Origin: a virus
Lineage: Duplodnaviria > Heunggongvirae > Uroviricota > Caudoviricetes
DNA length: 44,008 nt
Virus record (IMG/VR): IMGVR_UViG_3300008262_000022
Reading direction: 5' to 3' (one strand)
Shown here piece by piece: positions 1,501-39,751 of this stretch; position 1 is the stretch's first letter, and the number at the start of each line of letters is the position of its first letter. Position numbers and translations under genes: made by a program. The notes beneath the pieces were generated by a model, which made no database searches, had not been told where the DNA came from, and worked only from the letters and a program-made list of their open reading frames with translations.

Positions 1501-1842
1501 ATGAATGTAAAAACATTTAAAAAATTAATAAAAGAGGCAGTAGCTGAAGCAGTTCGTGAAGAATTACATGCTATCTTAAATGAAAATAATCCAACAAATC
1601 CATTACAAGAAAGTAAAACATTCAATTTTACTAGTAATGATGTCCCAACAGTTGGTGATGTAAGATCCCAATTAAGAAATAAAATGGGAAGTATGTTTGG
1701 TTTTGAACAACCAGTAGTATCTAATAATGGAGTACCACTAGTAGTTGATTCAACTAATGAAAATCCATTTGCTAATTTTATAATGGATGCAGCATTGAGT
1801 ATGACTGCTCAAGATAAAGCTGGTTTAAGTAATTTAGGATAA
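1501..1842 (+). CDS. Small virion protein with 'KKLIKEAV...ILNE' leader
   Basis: 113-aa ORF preceded by TATTTATA (1490-1497); leader shared with many proteins in this window. Confidence 0.6.
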   Translation: MNVKTFKKLIKEAVAEAVREELHAILNENNPTNPLQESKTFNFTSNDVPTVGDVRSQLRNKMGSMFGFEQPVVSNNGVPLVVDSTNENPFANFIMDAALSMTAQDKAGLSNLG

Positions 1843-1843
1843 T

Positions 1844-2254
1844 ATGCCAATACCTCAGATAACACGTGTAGACCCCTTAGATTTGCAAAAAAACATTGCT
1901 ATTGGGGTATCTTTACCATTTAATGGACCTGGGGTATTTAATAGAACATACAGCACTAAAGATCAAATAAAGTCCAATGTTATTAATCTTTTACTTACTA
2001 ATAGAGGTGAAAGAATAATGAATCCTAATTTTGGAGCAGATATAAAAGATTTATTGTTTGAGGGAATGACAGATAGTCTTAAAACAACAATTACTGATAG
2101 AGTAGCTACTTCGTTTTCAACTTATATTCCGCAAGCAACACTGGACAATGTTGATGTTATTTTTAGTGAAGATACAAACACAATAAATGTAACAGTTAAC
2201 TATACCCTAAATACATCAGGAACTTCAGATCAAGTTATTATAGAATTTCAATAA
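1844..2254 (+). CDS. gp25: Baseplate wedge subunit, gp25/GPW-like
   Basis: Motifs 'IKSNVINLLLTNRGERIMNPNFG' and 'ITDRVATSFSTYIPQA' typical of GPW_gp25; directly before a gp6-like gene. Confidence 0.85.
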   Translation: MPIPQITRVDPLDLQKNIAIGVSLPFNGPGVFNRTYSTKDQIKSNVINLLLTNRGERIMNPNFGADIKDLLFEGMTDSLKTTITDRVATSFSTYIPQATLDNVDVIFSEDTNTINVTVNYTLNTSGTSDQVIIEFQ

Positions 2255-2256
2255 AA

Positions 2257-4080
2257 ATGGCAAATAATATATCATATATAAATAAAAGTTTTAGTGATTT
2301 TAAATCTAATTTAATAAATTACGCTAAAACATATTTTCCTAACACATATAACGATTTCTCAGATGCTTCGCCTGGAAATATGTTTATTGAATTAGCATCT
2401 TATGTAGGTGATGTAATGTCATTTTATTTAGATACCCAAATTCAAGAAAATTTTTTATTATACGCTAAAGAAAAAGAAAATTTATATGCTATGTCTTATG
2501 TCATGGGATATAGACCAAAAGCATCATATGCTTCTTCTGTTGATGTAGATGTATATCAAATAATGCCTTCTACTATAAATGTAGTAACAGGTGAAACAAT
2601 CCCTAACAACAATGTATATGGGTTAATTATACCTGCTAATACTAATATTAGATCAGCCTCTACTGGATTAAATTTTATAACAACCGAAATAGTAGATTTT
2701 ACTGATTTATCAAATGCTGAAATAAGTTTTATAGACAGTAATTTCTTTTTAATTAAAAAAACAACAAAAGCTATATCAGCCGAAATAAAAACATCTACTT
2801 TTACTTTTACTACTCCTCAAAAATTTCAAACTATTACATTAAGTGATACTAATATATTACAAATATTAGATGTAACAGGGAGTGATAGTAATCAATGGTA
2901 CGAAGTACCTTATTTAGCCCAAGGAACAATATACCAAAAAATAGCAAATACCGGTTCTGATGCTTCTCAAGTACCTTATTTATTGCAATTACAAAGAACT
3001 CCAAGACGATTTGTATCTAGATTACTATCAGACAACACATTACAATTAGAATTTGGAGCAGGAATATCTAATAGCTCAGATGAAACTATACTTCCTACAC
3101 CTGATAATATTCAGTTAGGATTAGTTCCTGGAATATCAGATTTATCTAATAACTATAACAAAGCCTCTATATTTTTTACTAGAGAATATGGCTTAGCACC
3201 ATCTAATGGGACTTTACAAGTCAGATATTTAGTAGGAGGTGGAATATTATCTAACGTACCATCAAATGATTTAACACGTATAGACACAGCTGGGGTTTAT
3301 TTTAAAAACGGTACACCACCTGGTATAGGTTTGCCTACTCAGGTATTACAAAGTGTAGTTAGTAATAACCCTAATCCAGCTACTGGTGGTAAAGATGGAG
3401 ATCAAGTTGAAGAAATCAGAAATAATGCATTATATGCATATTCATCTCAATTAAGAGCAGTAACTAAAACAGATTATATAGTTCGTGCATTATCTTTACC
3501 ATCCGAATACGGAAGTATAGCTAAAGTATATGCCACACAACCATTATCATCTGATAATAGTAGTGGTATATCTAATCCATTAGCATTAGATATGTATATC
3601 TTAGCATACAATTCTGATAAACAATTAATTAACGCTACAAATAATCTTAAAAATAATTTATCTTCTTACATCAACGAATATAGAATGGTAACAGATGCTG
3701 TTAATATTAAGGATGCTTTTTATATTAATATAGGTGTTAATTTTGATATAACAACTGTAGCCGGTTCTAATAATAATGAAGTAATTAATAATTGTATATT
3801 AGCTTTACAAGACCACTTTAATATAGATAAATGGCAGATAAATCAACCTATTATATTATCAGATATTACATCTAAATTATTAAGAGTAAGAGGTGTACAA
3901 TCTGTGGTTAAAGTTGAAATAATAAATAAACAAGATAGTACAGGAACTAATTATTCTATTTATGGATATGATATTCCTGGGGCTACAAGTAACGGAGTTA
4001 TTTATCCTTCATTAGATCCATCTATTTTTGAAGTTAGATATCCTAATACAGACATACAAGGAAGAGTAGTAATACTTTAA
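2257..4080 (+). CDS. gp6: Baseplate wedge protein, T4 gp6 / baseplate J-like
   Basis: 'KSFSDFKSNLINYAK..F', 'FIELASYVGDVMSFYLD', 'G.DG.D.VEEIR.NA', 'RAVT..DY' motifs; 607 aa. Confidence 0.85.
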   Translation: MANNISYINKSFSDFKSNLINYAKTYFPNTYNDFSDASPGNMFIELASYVGDVMSFYLDTQIQENFLLYAKEKENLYAMSYVMGYRPKASYASSVDVDVYQIMPSTINVVTGETIPNNNVYGLIIPANTNIRSASTGLNFITTEIVDFTDLSNAEISFIDSNFFLIKKTTKAISAEIKTSTFTFTTPQKFQTITLSDTNILQILDVTGSDSNQWYEVPYLAQGTIYQKIANTGSDASQVPYLLQLQRTPRRFVSRLLSDNTLQLEFGAGISNSSDETILPTPDNIQLGLVPGISDLSNNYNKASIFFTREYGLAPSNGTLQVRYLVGGGILSNVPSNDLTRIDTAGVYFKNGTPPGIGLPTQVLQSVVSNNPNPATGGKDGDQVEEIRNNALYAYSSQLRAVTKTDYIVRALSLPSEYGSIAKVYATQPLSSDNSSGISNPLALDMYILAYNSDKQLINATNNLKNNLSSYINEYRMVTDAVNIKDAFYINIGVNFDITTVAGSNNNEVINNCILALQDHFNIDKWQINQPIILSDITSKLLRVRGVQSVVKVEIINKQDSTGTNYSIYGYDIPGATSNGVIYPSLDPSIFEVRYPNTDIQGRVVIL

Positions 4081-4086
4081 AAATAC

Positions 4087-4111
4087 GAAGAGGGCAAAAC
4101 CCTCTTCTTTA
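4087..4111 (+). terminator. Rho-independent terminator after the gp6-like gene
   Basis: GAAGAGGG-caaaa-CCCTCTTC followed by TTT. Confidence 0.7.
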
Positions 4112-4133
4112 CGTTTATAAAAATAAAAAGGTT

Positions 4134-4781
4134 ATGAAAAAAATTATTTTGTTTGCTTTATTAAGCATTAGTTTGTTTTCTTGTACTAAACAAGAAGAAG
4201 AAGGAACTTACCCCTGTTTAAATGGAAATTGTGAAGGATATTTTTATATCTCCGGTCCAGGACAAGACTCTATAGATAATAATGGTTATCATCATGTAAA
4301 ATATATTGGACTTAACTATTTTACAATTAGAGGAGAATTATCAGAATTATCACCAGAATATATCATAAATGGAGTTCCTTTAATAGAAGTAGGATTTGAT
4401 TCCGATTATTTTGTATTATTTGATACTGTTAGATATAGATATCCAGTATATTCCTTTTTAGGATTATATACAGACAAACGTTTTAGAGACCCTATTCCTA
4501 TAGGAACACGTATATATACTATGGTTAGTCTATCTGATTTTATGTCTCCTACTAATATTGTTGGTTATCAAATACCTAAAAAATTTACAGGATGGGAAAA
4601 ACCATATGCCCGTACTATGTTAGCAGTATACAGTAAATATACATACCAGCCAGGCGTTAATATATTTTTAGATGATGAAATGATTGGAGATACTGCTACT
4701 ATTTTTATGAGAGTAGTTTTTAATAGTGATTTTGGTCGTCAAGAAATTAAGAATTACGAGATGAAAGTAATTTTTGAATAA
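4134..4781 (+). CDS. Lipoprotein (signal peptidase II substrate), function unknown
   Basis: MKK + hydrophobic core + 'LFSC' lipobox, followed by TKQEEE. Confidence 0.7.
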   Translation: MKKIILFALLSISLFSCTKQEEEGTYPCLNGNCEGYFYISGPGQDSIDNNGYHHVKYIGLNYFTIRGELSELSPEYIINGVPLIEVGFDSDYFVLFDTVRYRYPVYSFLGLYTDKRFRDPIPIGTRIYTMVSLSDFMSPTNIVGYQIPKKFTGWEKPYARTMLAVYSKYTYQPGVNIFLDDEMIGDTATIFMRVVFNSDFGRQEIKNYEMKVIFE

Positions 4782-4823
4782 AACATGTATATACCATATT
4801 TATAGGAAATAAATCTTATAATT

Positions 4824-5414: not shown

Positions 5415-5458
5415 TGGAAGAAGATTATCCTGATTTTATAGATAATTTCGATATGTAA
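5414..5458 (+). CDS. Possible 14-aa acidic micro-ORF (MEEDYPDFIDNFDM)
   Basis: ATG overlaps the upstream TAA (TAATG); ends with TAA at 5456-5458. Not in the ORF track. Confidence 0.25.
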   Translation: MEEDYPDFIDNFDM

Positions 5459-16180: not shown

Positions 16181-17890
16181 ATGAAAGTAAATGAAATAGA
16201 TGTATTTAGTAAAAAATGGTGGGAGGAGAAATTACAATTAAATGAATCTCCTCCCAATAATTTTGAAAATGACAATAATCACCAATATGTTGAGGATAAT
16301 TTAAGTGCCTTAAACAAAACGGCTTTAATATTTAATTTCCCAGTAGAGGATCTACAGTTAGCTTTTAACGGTGCTTCTGATTTAGTACTAACAGATGATG
16401 TTTGGTCTAAATTAGAAAATAGTAATTCATATAATATTCAAAGTTTAGGACAAGCTTTGTTATACGCTAAAGAAAATAAAATAGATACTGTTCCATATTT
16501 AAAAGCTATTAAAAATTTAGAACCACTACCTAAAGCATTAATATTAAATTATGATAGTGATAAATACTATTTAGTAAATGGTGAATTTGTATTGTCTTTG
16601 CACAAAGCATTAAACCTAACACCAGATACGTTAATGGCTAGAATAAATCCTAAAATAAATGAGGATGGTGAATCTGAAGAGGAAATTAATTTAGTTAATG
16701 AATTTATCAACTATGTTAAAGATAAATTAGGATTAGTACAAATTCCTAAAATAGACTTCTCTGACGATATAGATCACGTTAAAGAACAACGCTCATTTGG
16801 TTATTTCTCACCCGATAGAAACATTATATGGGTATATGCTGGAGATAGAAATACAGCAGATATATTTAGAACACTAGCACATGAATTAATCCATCGTAAA
16901 CAAGAAGAAGACGGTAAGATAAATTACGAAAGTGGTGAAACAGGTAGTGATATTGAAAATGAAGCTAATGCTAAAGCCGGTGTGTTTTTAAGAGACTTTG
17001 GAAAAAAGTATGATGGTATATATGATACTCCTATAAAGAAATTTATTAAAGGTAACATAAATGAAGTAAAAATTCAACCAGCTGGTATTAATTTTACTTT
17101 CCCATTTTGGATTACTAAACAAAATAAATCACAAGCTCCTTTTATAGCGGATCAACTTAATAAACAAGGATATACGTTGAAAGGTGATAAATTCACAGAA
17201 GAAGATATTACATTTAATATTCCTACAATATTAGATTACGACAGCAATTATAGAGACCAACCAGAAAGAAAAATATTAAATACATACTCTCCATCAAGTG
17301 AAGTTAAAATTCAACCGCCACTTACTTATAAAAAAGCATATGGTGAAGTTCATTCATACAATGAAATGAAAAAATGGCAAGAACAAAATGGCGAATTACC
17401 TAGCCACTTTTTAGTAGATCGTACTAATAACACAGTATTAGCTGGTTTTCAAGCTATGAATATTCCTAAATGGGCATGGGATTTACAAAATGATAATAAT
17501 ATGTTTGCTTTAGCATCTAAATCATCTATAACAAATCCACCACCTTATTTAAATAATCCTAATATAGATGTAACTAACCCGGCTTCATGGGGTGATATAA
17601 ATAAAGTTAAAAAATACATAAAAAATAATGTAAATGAAGTAAAAATTAAAAATCCTGTTGTTGATTTAGACCAAAAAATAAAAGATATAGCTGATAATAT
17701 TATTGATTATATAGAATTTTTATATGATAGGGGTGATAAAATTGAGTCTAACAAATTAAGTGAAACCATGGATAATATTGAAAGAGCGTATAAATTCGAT
17801 TATTCTGATTTATCCTTAAAAAACATGAACTTTAAAAAGAAAATAGAACTTTATAAAGAACTTAAAGATATACAAGAAGAATTAAAATAA
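16181..17890 (+). CDS. Multi-module putative internal virion protein containing an HExxH metallopeptidase-like domain
   Basis: 'FRTLAHELIHRKQ...ENEANAKAG'; three (N/S)EVKI(Q/K) linkers; TATTTATA at 16170-16177. Confidence 0.6.
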   Translation: MKVNEIDVFSKKWWEEKLQLNESPPNNFENDNNHQYVEDNLSALNKTALIFNFPVEDLQLAFNGASDLVLTDDVWSKLENSNSYNIQSLGQALLYAKENKIDTVPYLKAIKNLEPLPKALILNYDSDKYYLVNGEFVLSLHKALNLTPDTLMARINPKINEDGESEEEINLVNEFINYVKDKLGLVQIPKIDFSDDIDHVKEQRSFGYFSPDRNIIWVYAGDRNTADIFRTLAHELIHRKQEEDGKINYESGETGSDIENEANAKAGVFLRDFGKKYDGIYDTPIKKFIKGNINEVKIQPAGINFTFPFWITKQNKSQAPFIADQLNKQGYTLKGDKFTEEDITFNIPTILDYDSNYRDQPERKILNTYSPSSEVKIQPPLTYKKAYGEVHSYNEMKKWQEQNGELPSHFLVDRTNNTVLAGFQAMNIPKWAWDLQNDNNMFALASKSSITNPPPYLNNPNIDVTNPASWGDINKVKKYIKNNVNEVKIKNPVVDLDQKIKDIADNIIDYIEFLYDRGDKIESNKLSETMDNIERAYKFDYSDLSLKNMNFKKKIELYKELKDIQEELK

Positions 17891-18495: not shown

Positions 18496-18738
18496 ATGAT
18501 TAAATTAGCTAACATATTAAGCGAAGACTACGGTGGTAAAGGTGAAATGGTTTTACCTCCAAACCATAAAGCCGGTTTAAAAGTACCTAAAGGCGGTTCA
18601 TGTTGTGCTAATTGCAAGTGGTGGAACCCAGAACAACAAATATGTAATAGTAAATATTATCAAGAATGGGCCGGTACTAACACTATTCCATACGCTGCTG
18701 ATGAATATTGTACTAATTGGTGGGAACCTATAAAATAA
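18496..18738 (+). CDS. Small Cys-rich protein with a HiPIP-like Cys pattern and cargo-type leader
   Basis: 'MIKLANILSE' leader, then 'CCANCKWW...C...YCTNWW'; TATTTATT at 18485-18492. Confidence 0.5.
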   Translation: MIKLANILSEDYGGKGEMVLPPNHKAGLKVPKGGSCCANCKWWNPEQQICNSKYYQEWAGTNTIPYAADEYCTNWWEPIK

Positions 18739-18753: not shown

Positions 18754-19167
18754 ATGATTAAATTATTAGACATATTAAACGAAATGCTAACTGAAAAGAA
18801 GCTATGCCCTAAAGGTAAAGCTTACTATAATCGTCGTATAGCTGCTGGTGAAAAACCATCAGCCTATTTATCAGGACGAGCAGTTAAAGTATGTAAAGGT
18901 TTAATGGAAGAAGATGACTTAGATCTACATGAATCATTACGCGATTGGTTTGAAAAAGAAGATTGGGTGCGCATTGACACAGCAGGTAATATTACAGGTC
19001 CTTGCGGTACAATGAAAAAAGGTAATAAAACAACACGTTGTTTACCTCGTGCTAAGGCAAATAGCTTAACTAAAGCAGAACGCGCTGCTACTTCACGAAA
19101 GAAAGCAGCATCAAATAAACAATTTGTTCCTAACACTAAAAAAGCTAAAGTAAGGCTGAACAAATAA
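18754..19167 (+). CDS. Basic two-module putative internal protein
   Basis: 'MIKLLDILNE' leader; module 1 'LCPKGK...PSAYLSGRAVKVCKG'; 'LHE' linker; module 2 'SLRDWFEKEDWV...CG...CLP'; TATTTATA at 18743-18750. Confidence 0.6.
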   Translation: MIKLLDILNEMLTEKKLCPKGKAYYNRRIAAGEKPSAYLSGRAVKVCKGLMEEDDLDLHESLRDWFEKEDWVRIDTAGNITGPCGTMKKGNKTTRCLPRAKANSLTKAERAATSRKKAASNKQFVPNTKKAKVRLNK

Positions 19168-19170: not shown

Positions 19171-19590
19171 ATGAAAACAATAAAATTAAAACAACTTATC
19201 CGTAATGTAATTAACGAAGCTTTCTTTATAGGCGAAGACGATATAGATGAATACGATGTTGAAAATGAACAAGATATAAAAGAATTTGTTCAATTCATGC
19301 GTGAATATCAACAAGAACTAAACGAAGCAGATTGTGATTGCATGTTGGAAGCTAAATACCAAGGTCGCACAGTACCTTTAGGTAAACCAATGCGTGGTGA
19401 TAGTAAGAAGTTTAAAGTATATGTTAAAAATCCTAAAACGGGCAAAGTAGTTAAGGTTAACTTTGGCGCCAAAGGAATGAATATAAAAAAGAACAACCCA
19501 GTTAGACGTAAAGCATTTAGAGCTAGACATAACTGTGACAACCCAGGACCACGTACTAAAGCTAGATACTGGAGTTGTCGCAAATGGTAA
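19171..19590 (+). CDS. Basic putative DNA-binding internal protein
   Basis: 'LKQLIRNVINE' leader, acidic spacer, then 'VNFG...RRKAFRARHNC...KARYWSC..W'. Confidence 0.6.
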   Translation: MKTIKLKQLIRNVINEAFFIGEDDIDEYDVENEQDIKEFVQFMREYQQELNEADCDCMLEAKYQGRTVPLGKPMRGDSKKFKVYVKNPKTGKVVKVNFGAKGMNIKKNNPVRRKAFRARHNCDNPGPRTKARYWSCRKW

Positions 19591-22475: not shown

Positions 22476-22952
22476 ATGAAATTAAATAGTAGTTTAGTAA
22501 AACAATTAATTAAAGAAGCCATTGCTGATCGTATCAAAATGATAGATGAAGCTGGTGATATTGCTGCTTTAGAAGCAAAAATCAGAAAAGTAGAAGAAGA
22601 TATCAAAGATGCTATGGCGGTTAAAGCGTCATTAACCTCTATGGAAGGTCTAAAATACTATGTTAACCCAGAAATCATCAGTGATATGATGGATGATATG
22701 GAAGCTAGTATTAAAGAATTACAAACCAAGAAAAAAGATCTAGAAGACCAGAAAAAAGCAATGGATAAAAATTCTAAAGGTCCTAAAAAGTCTGAAAAAA
22801 AAGAAGATAAAAAAGAAGTAAATGAGCGTAAATTAACTACTAAAGAAAAAAACAAAAAAGAAAAAGTAGTTAAATCGATGAAAAAAGATTTTGGAGGATC
22901 TAAGTCTGATATGTACGCTATAGCTACTAGCGTTGCTAAAAAATCAAAATAA
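22476..22952 (+). CDS. Coiled-coil, Lys/Glu-rich putative internal/core protein
   Basis: 'LVKQLIKEAI' leader, internal 'IDE' and 'VNE'; TATTTATA at 22455-22462. Confidence 0.55.
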   Translation: MKLNSSLVKQLIKEAIADRIKMIDEAGDIAALEAKIRKVEEDIKDAMAVKASLTSMEGLKYYVNPEIISDMMDDMEASIKELQTKKKDLEDQKKAMDKNSKGPKKSEKKEDKKEVNERKLTTKEKNKKEKVVKSMKKDFGGSKSDMYAIATSVAKKSK

Positions 22953-22953: not shown

Positions 22954-23304
22954 ATGGACTCTATAAAAAGAATGCAGCGATTAGCTGGTTTACTAACAGA
23001 ATCATTAGATCCTGTAGGTAAAGAAGATGCGGATATAGATAATGACGGTGATACAGATAAAACAGATAAGTATTTACTTAAACGCCGTAAAGCAATATCT
23101 AAAAACCTTAAAGAAGGCGACCATGAAGTATCTATGGCTCAGAATAGCTTAGAGGCAATAGCTAAAGCAGCAATGGAATTATCTCAAAAGATAGGAAATG
23201 TAGAGCGCAATATACCAGGTTGGATTCAAGACCATATAACAAATGCTGAAAATTACATTGAGCAAGCCGCTCAAGGTTTTCATGAACTAAAAGATGATGA
23301 ATAA
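22954..23304 (+). CDS. Putative core protein with RMQRLAG leader and EF-hand-like loop
   Basis: Start moved to ATG 22954, just after the upstream TAA; 'MDSIKRMQRLAGLLTE', 'DADIDNDGDTD'. Confidence 0.55.
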   Translation: MDSIKRMQRLAGLLTESLDPVGKEDADIDNDGDTDKTDKYLLKRRKAISKNLKEGDHEVSMAQNSLEAIAKAAMELSQKIGNVERNIPGWIQDHITNAENYIEQAAQGFHELKDDE

Positions 23305-23848
23305 AACATTATTATTAGAAAAATATATTAAGAAAGCTGTTCGTATGGCCTTAAAGGAAGAAGAACAGCAACAAAAACGAGCTGAGAAAGCGATGTACTT
23401 TATACATCGTTTTCCTGGTTTGAAAAAAACACTAGAAGAACTAATGTCTCCTGCTTTTGGAAGGTATATATCTGATGTCTCTTTAATAGCACCTAAACCT
23501 ACTACATTTGGTATAGGACTAATTAATGGACAAGATTTTACAGTAACATATTTAGGAAAAAATAATTTTTCTGTAAAAGTATCAGGTAAAAAATATAATC
23601 CTATTAATATAGGAGAATCTGAAAGAGCATCACAAGCAATAGCTGATTTACTTGAATTAAATTATGCTCCTAAAGAGTCTACAGAAGAATTAGCATCTCA
23701 ACGTGATGCCGATATTAAAGCCGATCTAGAAGGAGGAAGTACACCTCCATCTATTCCTACACCACCTTCTCCTGGAGAAACACCAACCCCTGAAGAAGAA
23801 CCTACCCCAGAAGAAACACCAACTCCTGAAGAAGAACCTGCTGCTTAA
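23294..23848 (+). CDS. Putative internal protein with C-terminal Pro/Glu/Thr repeats
   Basis: 'LLEKYIKKAVRMALKEE' leader; tail 'TPTPEEEPTPEETPTPEEEPAA'. Confidence 0.55.
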   Translation: MMNKTLLLEKYIKKAVRMALKEEEQQQKRAEKAMYFIHRFPGLKKTLEELMSPAFGRYISDVSLIAPKPTTFGIGLINGQDFTVTYLGKNNFSVKVSGKKYNPINIGESERASQAIADLLELNYAPKESTEELASQRDADIKADLEGGSTPPSIPTPPSPGETPTPEEEPTPEETPTPEEEPAA

Positions 23849-24677: not shown

Positions 24678-25115
24678 ATGAACCGCACAACACTACGCAC
24701 ACTAATAAAAGAGGCTATTCGTAAAACTCTTAAAGAACAAGAAGATTTAACCCCTATAGACCCAGGACCTGGACAAGAGCCAGCAAATGTTCCTACTTCA
24801 GATGAAGCACCATCTGAAGCTGAAACTCCTGAAGCACCATCAGGAAATATCAGCAAAGAAGAAGCTAAACAGTTGGTTAAAGGTACTAAAGGTAAATTTT
24901 TTACTGTTACATTTATTAAAAAAGATGGAACAGAACGAGTAATGAATGCTCGTTTAGGTGTTAAAGCTTATCTTAAAGGCGGTGATTTACCATATAACCC
25001 AGATGAAAAAGGATTAATTCCTGTATATGATATGAAAAATGGTGGTTATAGAATGGTAAACGTTAATACCATTAAAAAATTAAAAATAGGTAATAACGAA
25101 TATAACGTACAATAA
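24678..25115 (+). CDS. Cargo-leader protein with a C-terminal SH3/WYL-like beta domain
   Basis: 'LRTLIKEAIRKTLKE' leader, Pro-rich linker, 'FFTVTFIKKDGTERVM...VYDM...YRMVN'; TATTTATT at 24634-24641. Confidence 0.55.
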   Translation: MNRTTLRTLIKEAIRKTLKEQEDLTPIDPGPGQEPANVPTSDEAPSEAETPEAPSGNISKEEAKQLVKGTKGKFFTVTFIKKDGTERVMNARLGVKAYLKGGDLPYNPDEKGLIPVYDMKNGGYRMVNVNTIKKLKIGNNEYNVQ

Positions 25116-25471
25116 TGGAGTTAGTAGGTATTTTAAAAGAAAATAAACAAATTTATTATTTAGAATTAATTCCTCTAGATAATAAAACTAAAGTTAAGGA
25201 AATAGAAAAACAAATATCTAAATTACAGGCTTTAGGAGCTAATATGAGTGCAATCGATATGAAAACTTTATATAAAAATATAAAGCGATTTTTTGTTGGG
25301 AAATATAAAGATGGTAGTGATATTCCTACACCATATACTGATAAAAGTGAATTATTTAACAACCAATATGATACTAAAGCTACAATATTTACTAAAGAAG
25401 AAGCAGAAAAACGCAAAGCCTTTATAGATAAGTATGTAAAAGATTGGATTGTAAATATAAAAACAGTATAA
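25115..25471 (+). CDS. Hypothetical protein with 'GILKE' leader
   Basis: 118-aa ORF, TAATG-coupled. Confidence 0.5.
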   Translation: MELVGILKENKQIYYLELIPLDNKTKVKEIEKQISKLQALGANMSAIDMKTLYKNIKRFFVGKYKDGSDIPTPYTDKSELFNNQYDTKATIFTKEEAEKRKAFIDKYVKDWIVNIKTV

Positions 25472-26138: not shown

Positions 26139-26369
26139 ATGAAAAAATCTGAATTACAACAAATCATTAAAGAAGAAATACAAAAATCCCCTCAATATGT
26201 AGCCGACAAACTGTGGGATAAATTTAATGGAAATTTTGAAAAAATAGATAGATATATTGACGGTAAATTGTTAAAAAATATAAATAGATCTAAAATTTCT
26301 GTTGATAAAGTTGATAACATGGATAAATTTTGGAAAGAAGTATATAGATTAATATCTAATAAACTTTAA
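26139..26369 (+). CDS. Small cargo-leader protein inserted in the oxidoreductase
   Basis: 'MKKSELQQIIKEEI' leader; TATTTATA at 26118-26125. Confidence 0.6.
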   Translation: MKKSELQQIIKEEIQKSPQYVADKLWDKFNGNFEKIDRYIDGKLLKNINRSKISVDKVDNMDKFWKEVYRLISNKL

Positions 26370-27245: not shown

Positions 27246-28039
27246 GAAAAATAAAATTTGACACTTGTATAGTAGGTACAGGTAAAGCTGGAATAGACTT
27301 TTCAGCTAAGCTAGCTCAGAAATATAATTTACCTACTGAGCAAAAGTCGGTCCAAATAGGCTGTAGGTTCGAGGCACCACAAAAATACTTCCAGAAATTA
27401 ATTGATGTAAGTTACGATTTTAAACTATATCAAAAGTTTGACAATGTGTCGTTACGTTCATTCTGTACTAACAATAACGCGGCTTATGTAGCAGTAGAAG
27501 AAACGTATGGTGATATAACATATAATGGCCATGCTAAAAAAGGTGAAGAATTTCGCAATGACATGACTAACTTTGGCATCTTAATGGAAATTAAAGGTAT
27601 TGAAAATCCATTTGAATGGTCACGAGATGTTGTTAAAAAATGTAATATAGTAGATGGTCAAACAAAGGAAAAAATAGGAGGAATATATTATTCACCAAAT
27701 CAAACAAGACAACCATCTAATACCTCTGAGGGTGAAAGAGTTAAATCTCATCAAGCTCATGAACATGTATTACCTATAATAAGAGAAGCATTCGGTGGGT
27801 ATTTTGAATACATTGAAAACTTCATTGACCAAATGAATAAAGTATTCGAATTTGGTGATGATTGGGGTATGTATATTCCTGAAGTAAAATATCTATCTCC
27901 TGAACCATTAGTAAATTATAAAAACTTAGCATTAGTTGATTATCCTAACGTACACTTCGTAGGTGATGCTTTAAGTGCTCGTGGAATTACAGTATCAGGA
28001 GCGCATGGGATATATGTTGCTGAATATTTATTAGCATGA
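27242..28039 (+). CDS. FAD-dependent oxidoreductase (COG2509-like), C-terminal half of a split gene
   Basis: Begins 'MRKIKFDTCIVGTGKAG' with ATGA overlap on the endonuclease stop; 'QIGCRFE', 'RSFCTN', 'HFVGDALSARGI..SGAHG'. Confidence 0.8.
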   Translation: MRKIKFDTCIVGTGKAGIDFSAKLAQKYNLPTEQKSVQIGCRFEAPQKYFQKLIDVSYDFKLYQKFDNVSLRSFCTNNNAAYVAVEETYGDITYNGHAKKGEEFRNDMTNFGILMEIKGIENPFEWSRDVVKKCNIVDGQTKEKIGGIYYSPNQTRQPSNTSEGERVKSHQAHEHVLPIIREAFGGYFEYIENFIDQMNKVFEFGDDWGMYIPEVKYLSPEPLVNYKNLALVDYPNVHFVGDALSARGITVSGAHGIYVAEYLLA

Positions 28040-28698
28040 AACCTGTTGCTTTAACGCTATCATCTAGGATACCATTCGGTAAATATGAAAACCGATTGGT
28101 ATCCGATATATTAATATCTGACCCAAGATATCTAAAGTGGTTGTGGGTTGAGAAAAAAGCGATTGCTCCTGATACAGCATTGGAACAACGACTAAGATTA
28201 ACCCCGTCAGATTTTGCGGTAGCAGGAATGAAATTACCTAAAGCTAACTTAAAAGAAAATATGAAAGTAAAACAATTACGCGAAGCTATTCGCCAAATTA
28301 TTCGTAAAGAATTAAACGAAAACCAGCCAGCTAAATCACCAACACCTTCTCGCCCAGAACCAACTACTCTTCCTAAACCAGGAGTAGATAAACCTGATGA
28401 AAAACGCAGAAGAATAGGAAATCCAGATGTAAAACCTGCTCCTAAAAATTTAAAGGAAGAGGAAATGATAGATAAAATTACAGCTCGTTTTATGAAGGCT
28501 AAACAAATAAACGAATTGCTTACTTTAGACGATTTAGAAAAATTATCTCCGAAAAATAAGCCCGCATATACTGATGAACAAATTAGTAAGATGACATTAA
28601 AACAAGCTGAATTAGCTTTAAAAAAAGGAATATGGGATGTACCTCAAAATAAAAAAATTAGGGCTAAATTGCTATCTAGAATTAAATCACTAAAATAA
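28036..28698 (+). CDS. Modular protein: 'IPFGKY...DPRYLKWL' domain fused to a cargo-type Pro-rich module
   Basis: N-terminal 'PFGKY' nucleic-acid-binding-like domain; internal 'LKE-NMKVKQLREAIRQIIRKELNE'. Confidence 0.55.
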   Translation: MKPVALTLSSRIPFGKYENRLVSDILISDPRYLKWLWVEKKAIAPDTALEQRLRLTPSDFAVAGMKLPKANLKENMKVKQLREAIRQIIRKELNENQPAKSPTPSRPEPTTLPKPGVDKPDEKRRRIGNPDVKPAPKNLKEEEMIDKITARFMKAKQINELLTLDDLEKLSPKNKPAYTDEQISKMTLKQAELALKKGIWDVPQNKKIRAKLLSRIKSLK

Positions 28699-29732
28699 TG
28701 AAAAAAAGTTTACTAGAAGTAGAATACGAAGATATATTTAAACCTGAAACGATGGCCGCCTTAAAAGGTAAATCAGGTGAGTCATTGCGCGCTATGTTAG
28801 GTAATAAAAATCTAATGCAAACAATGATGCGTTCTCAGGAACTATTAAATCAAATTATAGCAGCTGAGTCTGATTATCGTATTGAATTACCTATGATTGC
28901 TGAAATTATGGCTAGAGAAGCATATCCTATTTTAGATTATGCTAATATAAAAATAGATGCCAAGATAGTAGGTATGGGTGAAGTAGAACAAAACGATGAT
29001 GGTCCCGATGAAGATGAAGACGAAACTCCTGTAGATGAAATACCATCAACTGATACTAAAGCTATGGAGAAAAAACGCCGTATAATCAACGGTATCACCC
29101 AAGGTGCTTCAGTACGTGGAACATTCGGATTTTTATTATTTAGAGAACATTTAGATGATTTAAACCCAGAATTAGTCGAAAAATATAACGAGATTATGAA
29201 ATTAGTCTTCGGTATATATGATGACGAAAATGCAATTGCTATGTTATTAGCGGCTGTTGGTCAAAAACAAAACATATCAGGTGGTTCATCAGAAATGGTA
29301 TATAACGAAGAAGATGATCAATTCATTATTAAAGCTAGAGCTATATGTTTCCCTATGTTATTCCATGAAATCGTAAAAGGATTATATGAAATCGTAGGAA
29401 CAGAAGGATTTGGTTCAGATAAAGAAGCAAACAAAGCTGTAGTTAATGCTGTAGATAGAGTATCAAATGAACCTCGTGATTTTCAATATGGTAAATTTAT
29501 ATATGATGCTTTATCGAATCTATATAACCAAAGCAATATAGACGATGCTAGAGTTAGAGAATTATTCTTTACAGAAGTATACAGATTAGATGATAGAGAA
29601 TTTATTATGTTCATTGAAAACTTATTAAACAATAAATTAAGTCCTACCCAAAAGAAATGGGCATCTGATACAATGAGAGAAATTGAATCTGACCTAAAGA
29701 AAGATGATACTGGACTTTCTGGCTTGGATTAG
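28698..29732 (+). CDS. Hypothetical acidic protein with 'SLLE' leader
   Basis: 344-aa ORF, TAATG-coupled; 'FPMLFHEIVKG'. Confidence 0.55.
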   Translation: MKKSLLEVEYEDIFKPETMAALKGKSGESLRAMLGNKNLMQTMMRSQELLNQIIAAESDYRIELPMIAEIMAREAYPILDYANIKIDAKIVGMGEVEQNDDGPDEDEDETPVDEIPSTDTKAMEKKRRIINGITQGASVRGTFGFLLFREHLDDLNPELVEKYNEIMKLVFGIYDDENAIAMLLAAVGQKQNISGGSSEMVYNEEDDQFIIKARAICFPMLFHEIVKGLYEIVGTEGFGSDKEANKAVVNAVDRVSNEPRDFQYGKFIYDALSNLYNQSNIDDARVRELFFTEVYRLDDREFIMFIENLLNNKLSPTQKKWASDTMREIESDLKKDDTGLSGLD

Positions 29733-30845: not shown

Positions 30846-31778
30846 ATGACCCCTAAACAAATCCGTGCTTTAGTTAAAGAAGTAATATTAGAAACAACTA
30901 ATGCTATTATATCTACCAAAACAGGTACTAAAACAATCCCATATAAAAATGCTAGCGAGTTAAATACTTTAAAAAACGATCCTAACATTAGTAGTATTGA
31001 AACTACAGGTGGTCAAAAAATTAAAGAAATGGCTCGTAAAGCTAAAGGATATCAAATTGTAGATCCTGAGTTTAACACCACCCCATATGCTAACAAAATA
31101 GTAAGTGGTGTTTCTATGGCTACCATCATTGATTATATTAAAGAAAATCCGGGTGTAGAGAAAAAAGATATACAAACACAATTTAACTTCGTACGTCCTC
31201 AAATAGCTAATGCATTGATGAATGGTCTAAAAGATGCTGGAATTATTGCTAAAATGGGTGAAATAGCAGTGGACGATGAAACTGGAGAAGTAACAGTAAC
31301 TGACGAGCCTGAAACTCCAACATCACGAGCAGGTGCTGAAGATTTCTTTGTTGGTAATAGAACAGGTAATTTCTTTTCATCTGGTGAGCCTAGCTTAACG
31401 GATGATGAAGATGAAATGGGCATGCCTGAAGAACCAGAAATACCTGAACTACCAGCTGAGATTCCTCAATCAATAGGAGGTATGGCCGATGAAGATTATA
31501 ACGCTTGGATGGAATATTCTAAATTTAAAGAACGTTTAGCTAGAACTAAAAGTGCTTTAATGCAAGCTAAGAAAATGGGTAGAAGCAGAGATGATTTATC
31601 ATCTGGGTCAGATGAAATAGAACGTTTAGCTAAATTAAAAGCATCATTAGAACAACGTATGCAAAATGTTATTGATTCTAGCGAATATGTTAAAAATAAG
31701 ATAGAACAAGAAAAAAATGCTCCATCTGAAGATGAAATAATGGAGCGCTTTCAGAAATTAGCGAATATTATAAAATGA
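30846..31778 (+). CDS. Acidic putative core protein with N-terminal leader and scaffold-like C-terminus
   Basis: 'MTPKQIRALVKEVILE' (ATG 30846; 30819 is an alternative start); ends 'MERFQKLANIIK'; TATTTATG at 30814-30821. Confidence 0.6.
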   Translation: MTPKQIRALVKEVILETTNAIISTKTGTKTIPYKNASELNTLKNDPNISSIETTGGQKIKEMARKAKGYQIVDPEFNTTPYANKIVSGVSMATIIDYIKENPGVEKKDIQTQFNFVRPQIANALMNGLKDAGIIAKMGEIAVDDETGEVTVTDEPETPTSRAGAEDFFVGNRTGNFFSSGEPSLTDDEDEMGMPEEPEIPELPAEIPQSIGGMADEDYNAWMEYSKFKERLARTKSALMQAKKMGRSRDDLSSGSDEIERLAKLKASLEQRMQNVIDSSEYVKNKIEQEKNAPSEDEIMERFQKLANIIK

Positions 31779-32437: not shown

Positions 32438-32443
32438 TATTTA

Positions 32444-36019: not shown

Positions 36020-36052
36020 TTATTATATATTTATAGATAGTGCATACTTTTT

Positions 36053-36907
36053 ATGAGAATCAAACATTCAAAATACAAAAATACAGGTATATTGTTTGAA
36101 TTATTAGTTAGACAAATAGCATCAGACACTATATCTAACAAAGATTCAGCTGCTATTGACTTAGTTAAAAGATATTTTAACAAAACTGAATTAGCTAAAG
36201 AATATAAAATATATCAAATCTTAACTAATTCTAATACTCTTAGTGAGGCTAAAGCAGAAACTTTTATTAATACTACTATTAATATATCCTCACGTTTAAA
36301 CAAATCTGTTTTACGTAAAGAAAAATATAATTTAATTAAAGAAATTCGTGAAAATTACAATATTGATGAGTTTTTTAAAGCCAAAATAAATAACTATTCT
36401 CAATATGCCGCTATCTATAATTTAATAGAGGCTAATAATTCATCAGAATTTATTGAACCCAATCAAATTATAGATAATAAAGTAACCTTACTTGAGCATA
36501 TTACTCGTAAAGAAATAAATAAAGATGGTGTTAAAGATCGTATTCTTGAAGAATATGCTAAAATGGATAAAGGTACTCGCTTATTAGCGTATCGAGTATT
36601 ACTAGAAAAATTCAATAAGAAATACTCTACATTAGACAATAGACAAAAAAATGTATTAAAAGAATACATTAATAATATATCTAACACTACTGGGTTAAAA
36701 GAGTTTGTTAATAGTCAATATACAGCCTTACGTAACGAATTAAATGAATTATCAAACAACGTTACTGATAAAACAATCAAGATTAAATTAACTGAGGTAA
36801 TTACTTTATTACAGCCATTAGGGAAAACCCAAAACGTAAAAGATGAAAATTTAATTTCATTATTACAGTATTATCAATTAACAAACGAATTAAAATCAGT
36901 TAAATAA
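36053..36907 (+). CDS. Head-assembly-region helical protein
   Basis: 284 aa directly after portal; TATTTATA at 36028-36035. Confidence 0.55.
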   Translation: MRIKHSKYKNTGILFELLVRQIASDTISNKDSAAIDLVKRYFNKTELAKEYKIYQILTNSNTLSEAKAETFINTTINISSRLNKSVLRKEKYNLIKEIRENYNIDEFFKAKINNYSQYAAIYNLIEANNSSEFIEPNQIIDNKVTLLEHITRKEINKDGVKDRILEEYAKMDKGTRLLAYRVLLEKFNKKYSTLDNRQKNVLKEYINNISNTTGLKEFVNSQYTALRNELNELSNNVTDKTIKIKLTEVITLLQPLGKTQNVKDENLISLLQYYQLTNELKSVK

Positions 36908-37914
36908 TGAAGGAGTATATTAAAAAACTTATACAAGAAGAATTAGCAAATAAGTTAAAGGAAACTACACATCCTTGGTATACATCTCTTAACGGGTATT
37001 ATAAAGGTGACACAAAAGCTGGATCAGGCCCAAGACATACTGGTAATGTAATTGATTATCTAAAACCAGGTACTTTAGTATATAATGCTAAGGGTGAGTC
37101 TAAAAGAATTAAAGATACAACTAGTGATCATATTATGTTTACTGATGGTACTAAAGATTACTTCATGAACTGGTTTCCTGAGAAACCTGATTTATATGAA
37201 GAATCAGCAACGGGCGCTATAGGCGTTGGAGCTGGTCCTATCATGACTCCTAAAGCTTTTGCTCCTAAAGGACAAAAAACAAATAAAGCAACTAAAACAG
37301 CAATGAAACAAGGATTTAAAAAAACATCAGGTATGCCTAAAAACTCTAAAATGTTAGATTATAAAGAACTTTGGAAAGGTAAAAAATCAGCTATGAATGA
37401 AATGGAAAACACATCTGAATCTATAAAAGTTGGTGATAAACTTAAACATAAATTAACTGGTGCTGAAATGGTTGTAACTAAAGTAAATGGAAATAATCTT
37501 ACTACTAAAATTACTTTAGTTGGTAATTTAAAAACAGGTAAAGTTGGAGATATTAATAAAACTAATGCTTTACTAGTAGGTAAAACATATGATTTAATTA
37601 AAGAAAATAAATCTTTAGAAGAAACAATAAATAATATAGTTAAAGAAGAATTACTTAACGAAGTATCATATAATAAATTTAAAAACGAAGTAAAATATCG
37701 TACTAAAGCAGAAATGCTTCATAAAAGTATTCGTGAAGTAAAACGTAAATTAGCTGAAGTAGACCAATTAATTGAATATACTACTCGTATAAAACAAGAA
37801 TTAAGCGAAAATGAGGATGGAAGTAATTATTGGAAACGCAGCTTAAAAGCTATAAACGAAATAAGCGAAATATCAAATAAAATTAGTAACAAAATTAAAT
37901 CAATCTATCAGTAA
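36907..37914 (+). CDS. Multi-module putative prohead core/internal protein
   Basis: 'MKEYIKKLIQEEL..LKE' leader; internal 'LYEE', 'MNE', 'LIKE' and a second leader 'INNIVKEELLNE'. Confidence 0.55.
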   Translation: MKEYIKKLIQEELANKLKETTHPWYTSLNGYYKGDTKAGSGPRHTGNVIDYLKPGTLVYNAKGESKRIKDTTSDHIMFTDGTKDYFMNWFPEKPDLYEESATGAIGVGAGPIMTPKAFAPKGQKTNKATKTAMKQGFKKTSGMPKNSKMLDYKELWKGKKSAMNEMENTSESIKVGDKLKHKLTGAEMVVTKVNGNNLTTKITLVGNLKTGKVGDINKTNALLVGKTYDLIKENKSLEETINNIVKEELLNEVSYNKFKNEVKYRTKAEMLHKSIREVKRKLAEVDQLIEYTTRIKQELSENEDGSNYWKRSLKAINEISEISNKISNKIKSIYQ

Positions 37915-38045
37915 TGGCTAAGGCAAAAGCATCACTTAAAGAATCACATAAAATTACTTTTGGTACTCGTAAAAAAGGTAAAGCAGCCAAAAGACGTAAT
38001 AAACACGATCACTCAGAAACTAACTACAGAGGGCAAGGACGATAA
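37914..38045 (+). CDS. Unannotated 43-aa basic peptide ending YRGQGR
   Basis: MAKAKASLKESHKITFGTRKKGKAAKRRNKHDHSETNYRGQGR; TAATG-coupled at both ends and fills the gap exactly. Confidence 0.75.
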   Translation: MAKAKASLKESHKITFGTRKKGKAAKRRNKHDHSETNYRGQGR

Positions 38046-38431
38046 TGAATATATCATACACTCCTGAAAAAATAGATGAATTTGTAACATTTGCTGAAAA
38101 AGAAAAATCATCCGCTATAAATGTATTTAAAGCAATACGTTCTAAAATACATGACATTAGTATACAGAATGCTATTGAATCTCCGGATGAATTAAATTCT
38201 TTATTAGATAAAATAAAACAAACTCGATCATTTCTTGATACTAAAGCTCAAAAGTATTATAATGTAGTAAAAATGTATGATATAACTGATTACCCGGATA
38301 ACGTAAGTAAATTAGATAACCTAACTACTGATTTAGATAACATAAATGATGATCTATATTTATTAGAAGATACTTTAGACAACATTGTAGAAGCAGTAAA
38401 AAAGTTAAAAGGCCAGTATTTTACTAAATAA
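38045..38431 (+). CDS. Hypothetical helical protein
   Basis: 128-aa ORF, TAATG-coupled. Confidence 0.5.
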   Translation: MNISYTPEKIDEFVTFAEKEKSSAINVFKAIRSKIHDISIQNAIESPDELNSLLDKIKQTRSFLDTKAQKYYNVVKMYDITDYPDNVSKLDNLTTDLDNINDDLYLLEDTLDNIVEAVKKLKGQYFTK

Positions 38432-38449
38432 AACATAATATTTATACAC

Positions 38450-39751
38450 ATGAAAAGTATAAAACAACAATACATAGATTTAAAAGAAGGTAGAATGAAC
38501 CAAGCGCAATTTATGCGTAATGTTCGTATGTCTTTACCTCAATATGTTACTAATGTAACGTCATTTAATGATACTATTAAAATATTAAAAAATAAAGCTA
38601 TCTTAACTGAAGCCGATATCTACGGTATTGCTGGTGATCCTGAAGCAGAAGCAGAAAGAAAAGCAGCAGGTATGGGTATCAAACCAGAACAAACACCTGA
38701 AGAAAAATATGGTGTTAATCAAAAGATAGACCAATCAGAACTTAATTTCTTAAAGAAAATATACGCTAAAAATCCAACTGATAAAATCAAACAAATGATT
38801 GATGATTTGGAGAATAGAATGAGATTAAATGAAGCCTATACTACTAACACTAGCGGTAAAGAATTATATTCGAAATTCGCAGAAATAGACAATTTAAACG
38901 GTCAAGAAGTATTAATCGGTATAGATTATGAAATCGAAAAAAATAGCGATTTAACCAAAAAAGAAGCCGCAAAAATTGTAGTTAAAAACCTAAAGAAAAA
39001 CCCTTTTTATTATACTGACTCATTACTTGCTGGTGTAGAAGGAGCTAAAGCCGAATACATGAATAAGTTTAAACCTGGATCAGATCAAATGAAAGATGTT
39101 AAAGGTGGTGATTTAGTAGATAAAGCTAATGCGATGATTTCACCTAAAAATATTGAAAAAGCTAAAGCATCTGCTAATAAAGCTAATAAAGAAACCAATA
39201 AACCAGAAGCAGGCATTAAAATGATGTCATTAGTAGCTAAAACTGTTCGTGGTGTTAAAAAAATGGATCCTACTGGTGAAAAAATGAAAAAACTAAATTT
39301 AAAAGAGTCACCAGAAGATAAAATAGGTAAAATAGTAGACCAAATTTACTCAGAATTACAATCTATGGGAACTTACGATTCAAATGATAAAGCTAATTTA
39401 ATAAATAAATATAATTTATCTAATGATGAAAAAGAAGAAATAGAATTTCGTTTATTTGATATGGATGCTGATGAAAGATACATGGATGATACCGAAGATA
39501 TAGATGAAGGATCTACACTACCTGGTGGTGATAATATGACTGACGTAGCAGGTCATCAAATGGATGAAGCTAAAGCAAGCTCATTATCAGTAGGTGATAA
39601 ATTTAAAATATCAGCTAATTTAGGTAAATTTGTAAAAGACGAAGAAGTAGAAGTAATTTCTTTGGAGCCGTTCGGAAATGATATTAAATTAGTATTATCA
39701 AATGGTAAAGATGAAGATGATTTTTACTTAGACAGAAATGACGAAATATAA
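38450..39751 (+). CDS. Multi-module putative prohead core/internal protein
   Basis: Modules separated by 'ILTE', 'RLNE', 'NLKE', 'IDE', 'MDE'; includes 'IGIDYEIEK...KNPFYYT'; TATTTATA at 38439-38446. Confidence 0.55.
   Translation: MKSIKQQYIDLKEGRMNQAQFMRNVRMSLPQYVTNVTSFNDTIKILKNKAILTEADIYGIAGDPEAEAERKAAGMGIKPEQTPEEKYGVNQKIDQSELNFLKKIYAKNPTDKIKQMIDDLENRMRLNEAYTTNTSGKELYSKFAEIDNLNGQEVLIGIDYEIEKNSDLTKKEAAKIVVKNLKKNPFYYTDSLLAGVEGAKAEYMNKFKPGSDQMKDVKGGDLVDKANAMISPKNIEKAKASANKANKETNKPEAGIKMMSLVAKTVRGVKKMDPTGEKMKKLNLKESPEDKIGKIVDQIYSELQSMGTYDSNDKANLINKYNLSNDEKEEIEFRLFDMDADERYMDDTEDIDEGSTLPGGDNMTDVAGHQMDEAKASSLSVGDKFKISANLGKFVKDEEVEVISLEPFGNDIKLVLSNGKDEDDFYLDRNDEI

Follow-up and report, generated by a model that had tools for sequence, protein, structure and literature searches.

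The 44,008-nucleotide stretch of viral DNA analysed here (IMG/VR record IMGVR_UViG_3300008262_000022, hereafter the window) encodes a series of otherwise unrelated proteins which share a short amphipathic leader peptide ending at a glutamate, in our view probably a capsid-targeting tag of the phage T4 type. The set examined comprises 52 open reading frames (ORFs); all the real genes are on the plus strand, and the sequence has a G+C content of 28-33%. Gene order and BLAST comparison with Flavobacterium phage vB_FspM_immuto (hereafter immuto) identify baseplate genes, a primase, an exonuclease, the terminase (32499), the portal (34127), four to five head-module genes, the protease, the scaffold and the major capsid protein. 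The latter (41648-43252, plus strand) is 61% identical to its immuto homologue, T4 gp23 being a more distant relative.

Solid leaders are present in about 12-13 of the 52 ORFs and fall into three classes. The long-helix class has nine ORFs (1501, 19171, 22476, 23294, 24678, 26139, 28261, which is internal, 30846 and 36907) with leaders of 16-28 amino acids and a core like L-I-K-E-A-I. The short class has three (18496, 18754 and 25115), with T4-like 9-10-mers such as MIKLxxILxE. In the scaffold-tail class, composed of two ORFs, the C-terminal peptide of the scaffold is copied once N-terminally (22954) and once C-terminally (30819 protein). The leaders and two weak candidates are the following, a slash marking the predicted cut.

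1501-1584, plus strand: long leader of ORF 1501-1842, 28 amino acids, with three tandem hydrophobic-xx-hydrophobic-hydrophobic-x-Glu units, ending ILNE/N.
18496-18525, plus strand: short T4-like leader MIKLANILSE/ of ORF 18496-18738; Cys-rich payload of 70 amino acids.
18754-18783, plus strand: short leader MIKLLDILNE/ of ORF 18754-19167; payload basic and weakly DUF5872-like, orthologues with the same leader class.
19171-19218, plus strand: leader MKTIKLKQLIRNVINE/ of ORF 19171-19590; payload with an acidic linker and then the basic domain phrog_7595 ('HVA1').
22476-22550, plus strand: long leader of ORF 22476-22952, 25 amino acids, with an LIKEAIAD stretch nearly identical to the scaffold N-terminus; payload a basic coiled coil.
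22954-23001, plus strand: N-terminal leader MDSIKRMQRLAGLLTE/ of ORF 22954-23304, a copy of the scaffold C-terminal peptide followed by a cleavage-type Glu.
23294-23359, plus strand: long leader of ORF 23294-23848, ending ALKE/E; the homologous helix is internal in an 841-amino-acid immuto protein.
24678-24737, plus strand: canonical 20-amino-acid long leader MNRTTLRTLIKEAIRKTLKE/ of ORF 24678-25115, followed by a Pro/Thr/Glu-rich linker and a WYL_2 SH3-like barrel.
25115-25141, plus strand: short leader MELVGILKE/ of ORF 25115-25471, 9 amino acids, in the length class of the T4 gp22 and gp21 N-termini; moderate confidence.
26139-26186, plus strand: long-class leader MKKSELQQIIKEEIQK of ORF 26139-26369, which fits the metagenomic consensus and is the top match (19.3 bits) of the immuto-leader hidden Markov model (HMM).
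28261-28320, plus strand: internal 20-amino-acid leader MKVKQLREAIRQIIRKELNE/ inside ORF 28036-28698, after a 75-amino-acid ExoX-like_C domain and before a Pro-rich linker.
30846-30893, plus strand: leader MTPKQIRALVKEVILE/ of ORF 30819/30846-31778, at the start of the immuto homologue; a ATATTTAT motif overlaps the upstream ATG.
31746-31775, plus strand: C-terminal tail RFQKLANIIK of ORF 30819/30846-31778, a copy of the scaffold C-terminal peptide.
36907-36963, plus strand: leader MKEYIKKLIQEELANKLKE/ of ORF 36907-37914, whose product is of core type and is encoded between portal and protease, in synteny with T4 gp67/gp68.
28698-28718, plus strand: weak candidate MKKSLLE/ of ORF 28698-29732, without model matches.
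38450-38488, plus strand: weak candidate MKSIKQQYIDLKE/ of ORF 38450-39751, a conserved head-module protein whose N-terminus is kept in relatives and lies outside every leader class.

The true starts are probably 30846 rather than 30819 and 22954 rather than 22933. A preliminary description of this DNA had attributed one common leader to about 20 proteins. Its leaders are real and are found in the sequence where it had placed them, with the number reduced to the solid cases above and the single type resolved into three classes; MKKSLLE of 28698 and the start of the capsid protein, MNIQQLLE, are weak or ambiguous. That the proteins concerned are otherwise unrelated is borne out by pairwise comparison of the payloads, in which no similarity to one another was found.

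A regular expression of the leader core matches seven times at the beginning of the 52 ORFs, within 30 residues, against two matches among 12,666 interior positions, and one of these two comes directly after the internal Met at 28261. The core starts at residue 9-11 from the Met in every long-class case, while in the short class the whole 10-mer occupies residues 1-10. As this expression was composed after the data had been seen, three independent tests were added, of which the pairwise payload comparison above is one. An HMM built from five immuto leaders only and run on the six-frame window gave 26139, 1501, 28261, 36907, 19171 and 24678 as its top six matches, and no match on the minus strand or in off-frames. 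In the control suggested by the preliminary description, performed with 200 shuffled proteomes, scores of at least 7.5 bits were reached at a rate of 0.01 per shuffled proteome. A unit of seven residues derived from T4 propeptides, and so defined outside the window, shows an 8-fold N-terminal enrichment (Fisher p = 1.5e-9) and flags 14 ORFs, 12 of which had been on the preliminary list. A composition artefact is ruled out by the interior, off-frame and shuffle controls.

The leader is built of the unit hydrophobic-x-x-hydrophobic-hydrophobic-x-Glu, which is also the unit of the T4 propeptides of IPII/III, gp24 and Alt. In the T4 record these read MKTYQEFIAE (IPII, IPIII), MAKINELLRE (gp24) and MELITELFDE (Alt), positions 4, 7 and 8 being hydrophobic and position 10 a Glu; MIKLANILSE and MIKLLDILNE share both length and pattern. 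The long leader is the same unit twice with a period of 8 (L6..I9-I10.E12 and I14..V17-L18.E20). In T4 the capsid-targeting sequence (CTS) has been known since 1996 (Mullaney & Black 1996; reviewed in PMC9026906, PMC5694885, PMC3012670), and mutagenesis of the IPIII CTS by Mullaney and Black, as reviewed, attributes targeting to positions 4 and 7, and processing to positions 8 and 10 (PMC9026906). A profile of the long leader has no match in T4 and two Kyanoviridae genomes, one marginal match in HTVC008M (E 0.07) and four in immuto; the leader sequence is therefore lineage-specific and the pattern alone is shared. A tblastn search of cultured phage genomes with a 21-amino-acid leader gave no match, probably as the query is short and filtered, and a search of the literature brought up no paper in which these leader strings are mentioned.

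Natural variants carry the same payload with the leader exchanged or absent. The payload of 19171 shares 89% identity with a protein of another contig in which MIKLIDILNE takes the place of MKTIKLKQLIRNVINE, the junction being exactly E/AFFIGEDD, and about ten more 19171 orthologues bear a short-class leader. In one contig (L224:3275) a single 271-amino-acid ORF combines the homologues of 18754 and 19171, which are neighbouring genes in the window, and the 19171 leader has become the internal linker KVKLKELRQIIKNIINE/LL. The C-terminal domain of 19171 (phrog_7595) is found without any leader in a podovirus, a siphovirus and a roseophage, the three proteins read, which start directly at the domain (MAKYQGRTV...); the version from a Kyanoviridae myovirus is preceded by MKKFKQYIDE, a decamer of the T4 kind. 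In 18754, 19171 and 24678 the PHROG profiles cover parts of the payload alone. The 841-amino-acid protein of immuto (114006-116531) fuses homologues of the 30819 N-domain (30846-31000), 22954 and 23294, the leader of the last being internal there, and the leader class of 22954 is also present in relatives. In the syntenic pair formed by 1501 and immuto_157 the leader alone is recognisably conserved. Judged by such fused ORFs of relatives, with leader-like helices at their joints, the architecture is polyprotein-like and of a module-shuffling kind. A further ORF of the window (16181-17890, 569 amino acids) has repeated (N/S)EVKI(Q/K)xP joints, which fit the theme of modules joined at Glu-containing linkers.

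The leaders are widespread in uncultured phages. A DNA-pattern search of IMG/VR for MKKS[EQ]LxxIIKEE retrieved at least 117 stretches with 151 ORFs and at least 115 distinct payloads. Among the matches listed, positions 14-20, which are outside the search pattern, are still conserved (I-x-K-V-L-N-E), information content is at background from residue 21, and in 64 of the 115 listed payload proteins residue 20 is itself the Glu of a hydrophobic-x-Glu; the window leaders at 24678 and 28261 align to this metagenomic 20-mer without gaps. Searching viral contigs for MIKLx[DN]ILxE gave at least 111 distinct payloads, with conservation collapsing after Glu10, so that the two main leaders together are associated with more than 220 distinct payloads among the matches listed. 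Leaders in the window differ in both codons and residues, and in the 115 listed metagenomic leaders synonymous codon identity is 0.64, compared to 0.58 predicted from payload codon usage. On this codon evidence selection acts on the leader peptide and not on the DNA, and a DNA-level repeat or recombination linker is thereby ruled out.

An S77 protease is encoded in all eight leader-bearing records with a completeness of at least 90% (148-369 kb) and in 29 of 52 leader-bearing records overall, the remainder being fragments; both counts are among the matches listed. Five near-complete genomes have 6-12 long leaders each, all on the strand of the protease. In the S77 frames of two leader-bearing contigs, G016 (60,877 bp) and G017 (49,906 bp), there are respectively three and two in-frame TGA codons, a hint that TGA is recoded in part of the clade. 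Five genes of immuto (1803, 103806, 117631, 118632 and 125241) carry an extra N-terminal leader class, MENFDLKKFLVENKLT...LLKE, which is absent from the window.

The T4-type head of the phage is represented by a gp23-like capsid protein, a gp20-like portal, a gp22-like scaffold and an S77 protease with catalytic His and Ser. The features of the region which are relevant to the processing and assembly of the head are:

39754-40374, plus strand: prohead protease of the S77 / T4 gp21 family (PF03420, Peptidase_S77, E = 2.3e-31); its motifs with the catalytic His and Ser can be aligned with those of T4 gp21.
40585-41622, plus strand: scaffold protein (gp22 analogue) with conserved N-terminal helix KKLFQEAIVDAKAIRE and C-terminal peptide SRMQKLANIIK.
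41648-41824, plus strand: predicted propeptide of the major capsid protein, 59 amino acids, ending QLVVE/A, from alignment with T4 gp23 and 17 relatives.

The T4 gp23 maturation site FLTE/A aligns over QLVVE/A, after residue 59 of the capsid protein. This position is [LV]-x-E in 17 of 17 relatives and is followed by a variable Gly/Thr-rich stretch. The propeptide contains additional LLE sites at residues 8, 34 and 50, and the main maturation site is predicted to be Glu59 and not Glu8. Given the T4-related capsid protein, the S77 match and the aligned capsid site, the phage is a distant T4-type myovirus of Bacteroidota, and its protease very probably cuts after hydrophobic-x-Glu. The end of the protease itself (40300-40374) reads ...NELITE/IICTQTGVCALC, and ITEILC..G.CPI(I/F) after hydrophobic-x-Glu is kept in about 11 of 20 relatives; this could represent a propeptide at the C-terminus containing a pair of Cys, reminiscent of T4 gp21, which processes its own C-terminus. 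Also in the head module is a very basic ORF of 43 amino acids (37914-38045) ending YRGQGR. Immuto and several relatives keep the C-terminal Y-[RV]-G-Q-G-[RK], and the product may be a small DNA-binding head protein.

The protease-scaffold-capsid region was taken from 20 relatives, and HMMs of the scaffold termini, built from the relatives' scaffolds alone, were run on the six-frame window. The N-terminus (LLKEAIADAKAV[KR]E) and the C-terminus ([AN]R[MFW]xxLAGI..) are the most conserved parts of the scaffold. Apart from the window's own scaffold, the N-terminal HMM found only the leaders of 22476 (8.0 bits, the best match) and 1501 (5.4 bits, the second best), and the C-terminal HMM only the C-terminal tail of the 30819 protein (12.5 bits) and the beginning of 22954 (8.1 bits). 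Matches at these scores occur 0.005 (22476) and 0.02 (1501) times per shuffled proteome and not at all for the 30819 tail and 22954 (both 0/200). In relatives, small genes between protease and scaffold start with ...RMQ.LAGIITE/. The tags thus resemble copies of the assembly ends of the scaffold itself, the scaffold termini being their apparent templates, and this resemblance ties them to head assembly independently of the analogy with T4. A prediction of the complex between the scaffold (19-row alignment) and residues 1-60 of ORF 24678 folded both chains with low confidence.

With respect to the payloads, comparison with Pfam, PHROGs and NCBIfam identified WYL_2 (24678), a weak DUF5872 (18754) and ExoX-like_C (N-domain of 28036), the other families matched being uncharacterised. 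In the AlphaFold2 model of 24678 a helix at residues 3-23 is followed by a low-confidence linker (24-54) and an SH3-like barrel (55-145). The 18496 payload is Cys-rich, and several payloads are basic with an isoelectric point of 9.4-10, as in the T4 internal proteins (18754, 19171, 22476, 25115, 26139 and 28036), others being acidic. No payload of the peptidase-like kind named in the preliminary description was identified, and the kinase it had mentioned (13404) has no leader and is outside the set. Internal hydrophobic-x-Glu sites are few (one or two) in the small folded payloads 24678 (SH3-like), 18496 (Cys-rich), 25115 and 26139, and number 15 in the 36907 protein. The latter has a homologue in every relative, with a leader ending in Glu and then a conserved (M/A)S(T/A)TG motif, and in one relative the leader is exactly MKKSELKQIIKEEL.

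Of the 20 longest metagenomic payloads, two have matches to zeta-toxin/AAA_33-like kinases and the rest have no match. The two proteins (L126:8531-9763 and L146:1846-3063) combine an MIKL..IL.E leader with a P-loop kinase of this type, one having also an NT5C nucleotidase domain, and are candidate packaged enzymes. ORF 22954 matches several PHROGs without known function and contains LDPVGKEDADIDNDGDTDKTDKYL (23002-23080), a calcium-loop-like (dockerin/EF-hand-like) motif present also in the 841-amino-acid immuto protein. The phrog_7595 domain (window 19350-19590, about 80 amino acids) occurs in pelagiphage podoviruses and siphoviruses, in roseophages, in T4-like pelagimyophages and in spindle-shaped archaeal viruses of Nitrosopumilaceae, a host and virus range which is unusually wide for a domain of this size.

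A promoter-like motif, TATTTATA (usually ATATTTATA), has 13 copies in the window, all of them intergenic and 3-35 nucleotides upstream of a start codon:

1490, 4797, 5479, 10700, 16170, 18743, 22455, 26118, 26399, 32479, 34112, 36028 and 38439: copies of TATTTATA.

The motif precedes the terminase, the portal and structural genes as well as the leader genes 1501, 18754, 22476 and 26139, and a variant, ATATTTATT, is upstream of 18496, 24678 and 28036. In immuto it is found upstream of the terminase, portal, sheath, tube, tape measure and fibre genes. The shared ATATTTATA motif fits late co-expression of leader genes with terminase, portal and tail genes. Four copies end exactly 3 nucleotides before the ATG (1501, 16181, 18754 and 38450), which suggests that late transcripts are leaderless or nearly so. 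Read on the coding strand, the motif is the reverse complement of the T4 late promoter TATAAATA. A comparison of late and early genes, likewise suggested in the preliminary description, was made in immuto, where N-terminal unit matches are found in 16 of 53 genes of the 78-131 kb head/late region and in 21 of 179 elsewhere (3-fold, p = 0.002).

The tags are real, N-terminal and modular, are selected at the protein level, end at Glu, are swapped between payloads and resemble the scaffold termini. The most probable explanation, which we hold with reasonable confidence, is that they are T4-type capsid-targeting propeptides, recognised through mimicry of the scaffold termini and removed by the S77 protease. 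The tag would be an amphipathic peptide of one, two or three hydrophobic-x-x-hydrophobic-hydrophobic-x-Glu units and this lineage's version of the CTS, the long class imitating the N-terminal helix of the scaffold and the third class its C-terminal peptide. As the tags imitate the scaffold termini, we propose that a tagged protein would co-assemble with the scaffold core within the prohead as it grows. The S77 protease would then cut after the terminal Glu and free the payload, the same protease trimming the capsid protein at V-V-E/A. Payloads with few internal sites (18496, 24678, 25115 and 26139) would stay in the head, where they are probably retained cargo, and might exit together with the DNA; judging by analogy from T4's internal proteins and its Alt, their ejection into the host is plausible. 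Site-rich payloads (36907, 19171) would probably be core or scaffold components and be degraded, and 36907, 30819 and 22476, which are in or beside the head module, are probably such degraded core components. The portable, protease-removable head-targeting tag of the preliminary description is thus supported by the S77 protease, the conservation ending at Glu, the swapping, the leaderless forms in phages not of the T4 type and the scaffold resemblance, while its idea of injected cargo probably does not extend to 36907, 30819 and 22476.

Several observations weigh against this explanation. ORF 1501 belongs to the baseplate operon, and in T4 gp21 does not process the proteins of the tail. The 26139 leader, which the preliminary description had counted among its examples, lacks the second, terminal hydrophobic-x-Glu, i.e. 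the cleavage motif. Leader-like N-termini occur also among early-region genes of immuto, so that the head/late enrichment is not exclusive. The association with S77 may be partly phylogenetic, the leader-bearing contigs belonging to a few related clades. Most payloads have no functional match in Pfam, PHROGs and NCBIfam, and nothing independent therefore marks them as virion proteins. Finally, we infer core binding, cleavage, retention and ejection from T4.

Some of the same data could be explained if the tagged proteins were mainly prohead-core or scaffold-like assembly components, brought into the prohead by this helix and then chopped by the protease and expelled, rather than cargo delivered to the host. 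ORFs 36907, 38450 and 30819 are in or near the head module, the first being syntenic with T4 gp67/gp68 and rich in cleavage-type sites, 30819 bears the scaffold C-terminal tail and 22476 is a scaffold-like coiled coil. This overlaps with the capsid-targeting explanation and is probably true for a subset; for the whole set it is unlikely, since many of the payloads consist of a small folded domain containing one or two internal sites, and more than 220 payload families, P-loop kinases included, are hard to fit to a structural role. Amphipathic helices are versatile, and the leader might also be a general N-terminal helix unrelated to the capsid, serving oligomerisation, hub docking or membrane association and spread by module shuffling. 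The baseplate location of 1501 and the early immuto genes would agree with this. Such a helix would leave unexplained why conservation stops exactly at the Glu of the protease motif, why both scaffold termini are copied, why the short form has the pattern which experiments established for the T4 CTS and why the domain is leaderless outside T4-type phages, and we regard it as quite improbable.

It is a very remote prospect that the gene starts are a nucleic-acid feature with an incidental peptide, either a recombination linker for cassette exchange or an unstructured, A/T-rich translation start for mRNAs without Shine-Dalgarno. The genes are AT-rich, often begin only 3 nucleotides after the promoter-like motif, and the modules are clearly shuffled; yet the codons and residues of the window leaders vary, metagenomic synonymous identity is close to that predicted, the helix is kept also as an internal linker within ORFs, and the amino acid pattern is amphipathic and periodic. 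Chance in a K/E/I/L-rich proteome encoded by DNA of 30% G+C does produce isolated matches, such as the terminase start MSNQEQIREIIKQEY, which fits the loose regular expression, and the 7-residue unit in enzymes such as 30287. At the observed scores the interior, the off-frames, the minus strand and the 200 shuffled proteomes are essentially free of matches, so that chance is refuted for the 12-13 solid cases and has a negligible probability overall.

The capsid-targeting explanation can be extended to a bolder one, which we put forward tentatively and hold somewhat short of an even chance: the tags could be an address code, readable from sequence and derived from the two assembly ends of the scaffold. 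The N-terminal helix would be used single, doubled or tripled and the C-terminal peptide at either end of the cargo, and any protein, or a string of proteins joined by internal tags, would enter a T4-type head by posing as scaffold. If this is true, the packaged and injected proteome of hundreds of uncultured phages would be readable from their genomes, including more than 200 uncharacterised families and the zeta-toxin-like kinases. If the tags work as in T4, they already provide a rule for listing the capsid-carried proteins, probably injected before gene expression, of many uncultured marine and freshwater T4-type phages. Such proteins would be the likeliest first-strike anti-defence or takeover factors, and nearly all are without assigned function. 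The resemblance to the scaffold is a testable hypothesis for the recognition of the CTS, which is structurally not understood thirty years after its discovery in T4, and the tags could extend T4-style protein-packaging tools to other hosts. Since a cultured relative, immuto, bears the same leaders, the idea is directly testable.

Partial parallels are known from other systems. CpmB of SaPI1 mimics the scaffold C-terminus in capsids of the staphylococcal phage 80alpha and redirects capsid size, rather than loading cargo. Encapsulins, which are not viruses, have cargo-loading peptides. In both systems a short peptide which copies an element binding shell or scaffold, or competes with it, takes a foreign protein into a shell of the HK97 fold. 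Neither CpmB nor the encapsulin peptides are known to be removed by a protease, unlike the tags predicted here. In the phiKZ-like giant phages (201phi2-1, phiKZ and SPN3US; PMC5694885, PMC10052503) many proteins of the head, together with ejection proteins, possess N-terminal propeptides, which are cut after Glu by a gp21 homologue or relative and are thought to serve prohead targeting. These propeptides are mostly of at least 100 residues, have no common short leader and end in an S/A-x-E motif with a small P3 residue, and no gp22-type scaffold is identified there (PMC5694885, PMC10052503).

The closest system is the CTS of T4, i.e. the propeptides of IPI, IPII, IPIII, Alt and gp24 removed by gp21. 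In both cases a portable N-terminal tag of 10-20 residues is found on unrelated proteins and ends in (L/I/V)-x-E, and a gp21/S77 protease, a gp22-type scaffold and a gp23-type capsid protein are present. The payloads have no homology to IPI, IPII, IPIII or Alt in Pfam, PHROGs and NCBIfam, and membership of the T4 CTS group is therefore claimed for the tag alone. The sequences are unlike those of T4, and the commonest form here is a tandem double unit of 20 amino acids, extending up to 28. At least 12 tagged genes occur in 44 kb, with more than 100 payload families per leader class in uncultured relatives; tags serve also as internal linkers, and one class copies the scaffold C-terminus. The polymorphic internal-protein loci of T-even phages (PMC3012670, PMC9026906) are similar in their fast gene turnover with retention of the leader and in the suggested delivery of anti-defence proteins with the DNA. 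They are limited to a few proteins, small and basic, in enterobacterial phages closely related to T4, whereas the tagged set described here is larger, scattered along the genome of a distant Bacteroidota lineage, and includes acidic, Cys-rich and enzyme-like payloads. The preliminary description had seen here its strongest candidate for an undescribed system. The T-even internal proteins are already described as a diverse set with the CTS as their sole common part (PMC3012670, PMC9026906), and the CTS has been proposed as a possibly general route of protein loading in T4-like phages (PMC3012670, PMC9026906, PMC5694885). The principle itself is thus not new; what is new is the lineage, the tandem form of 20-28 amino acids, the use as internal linker, the mimicry of the scaffold termini and the scale.

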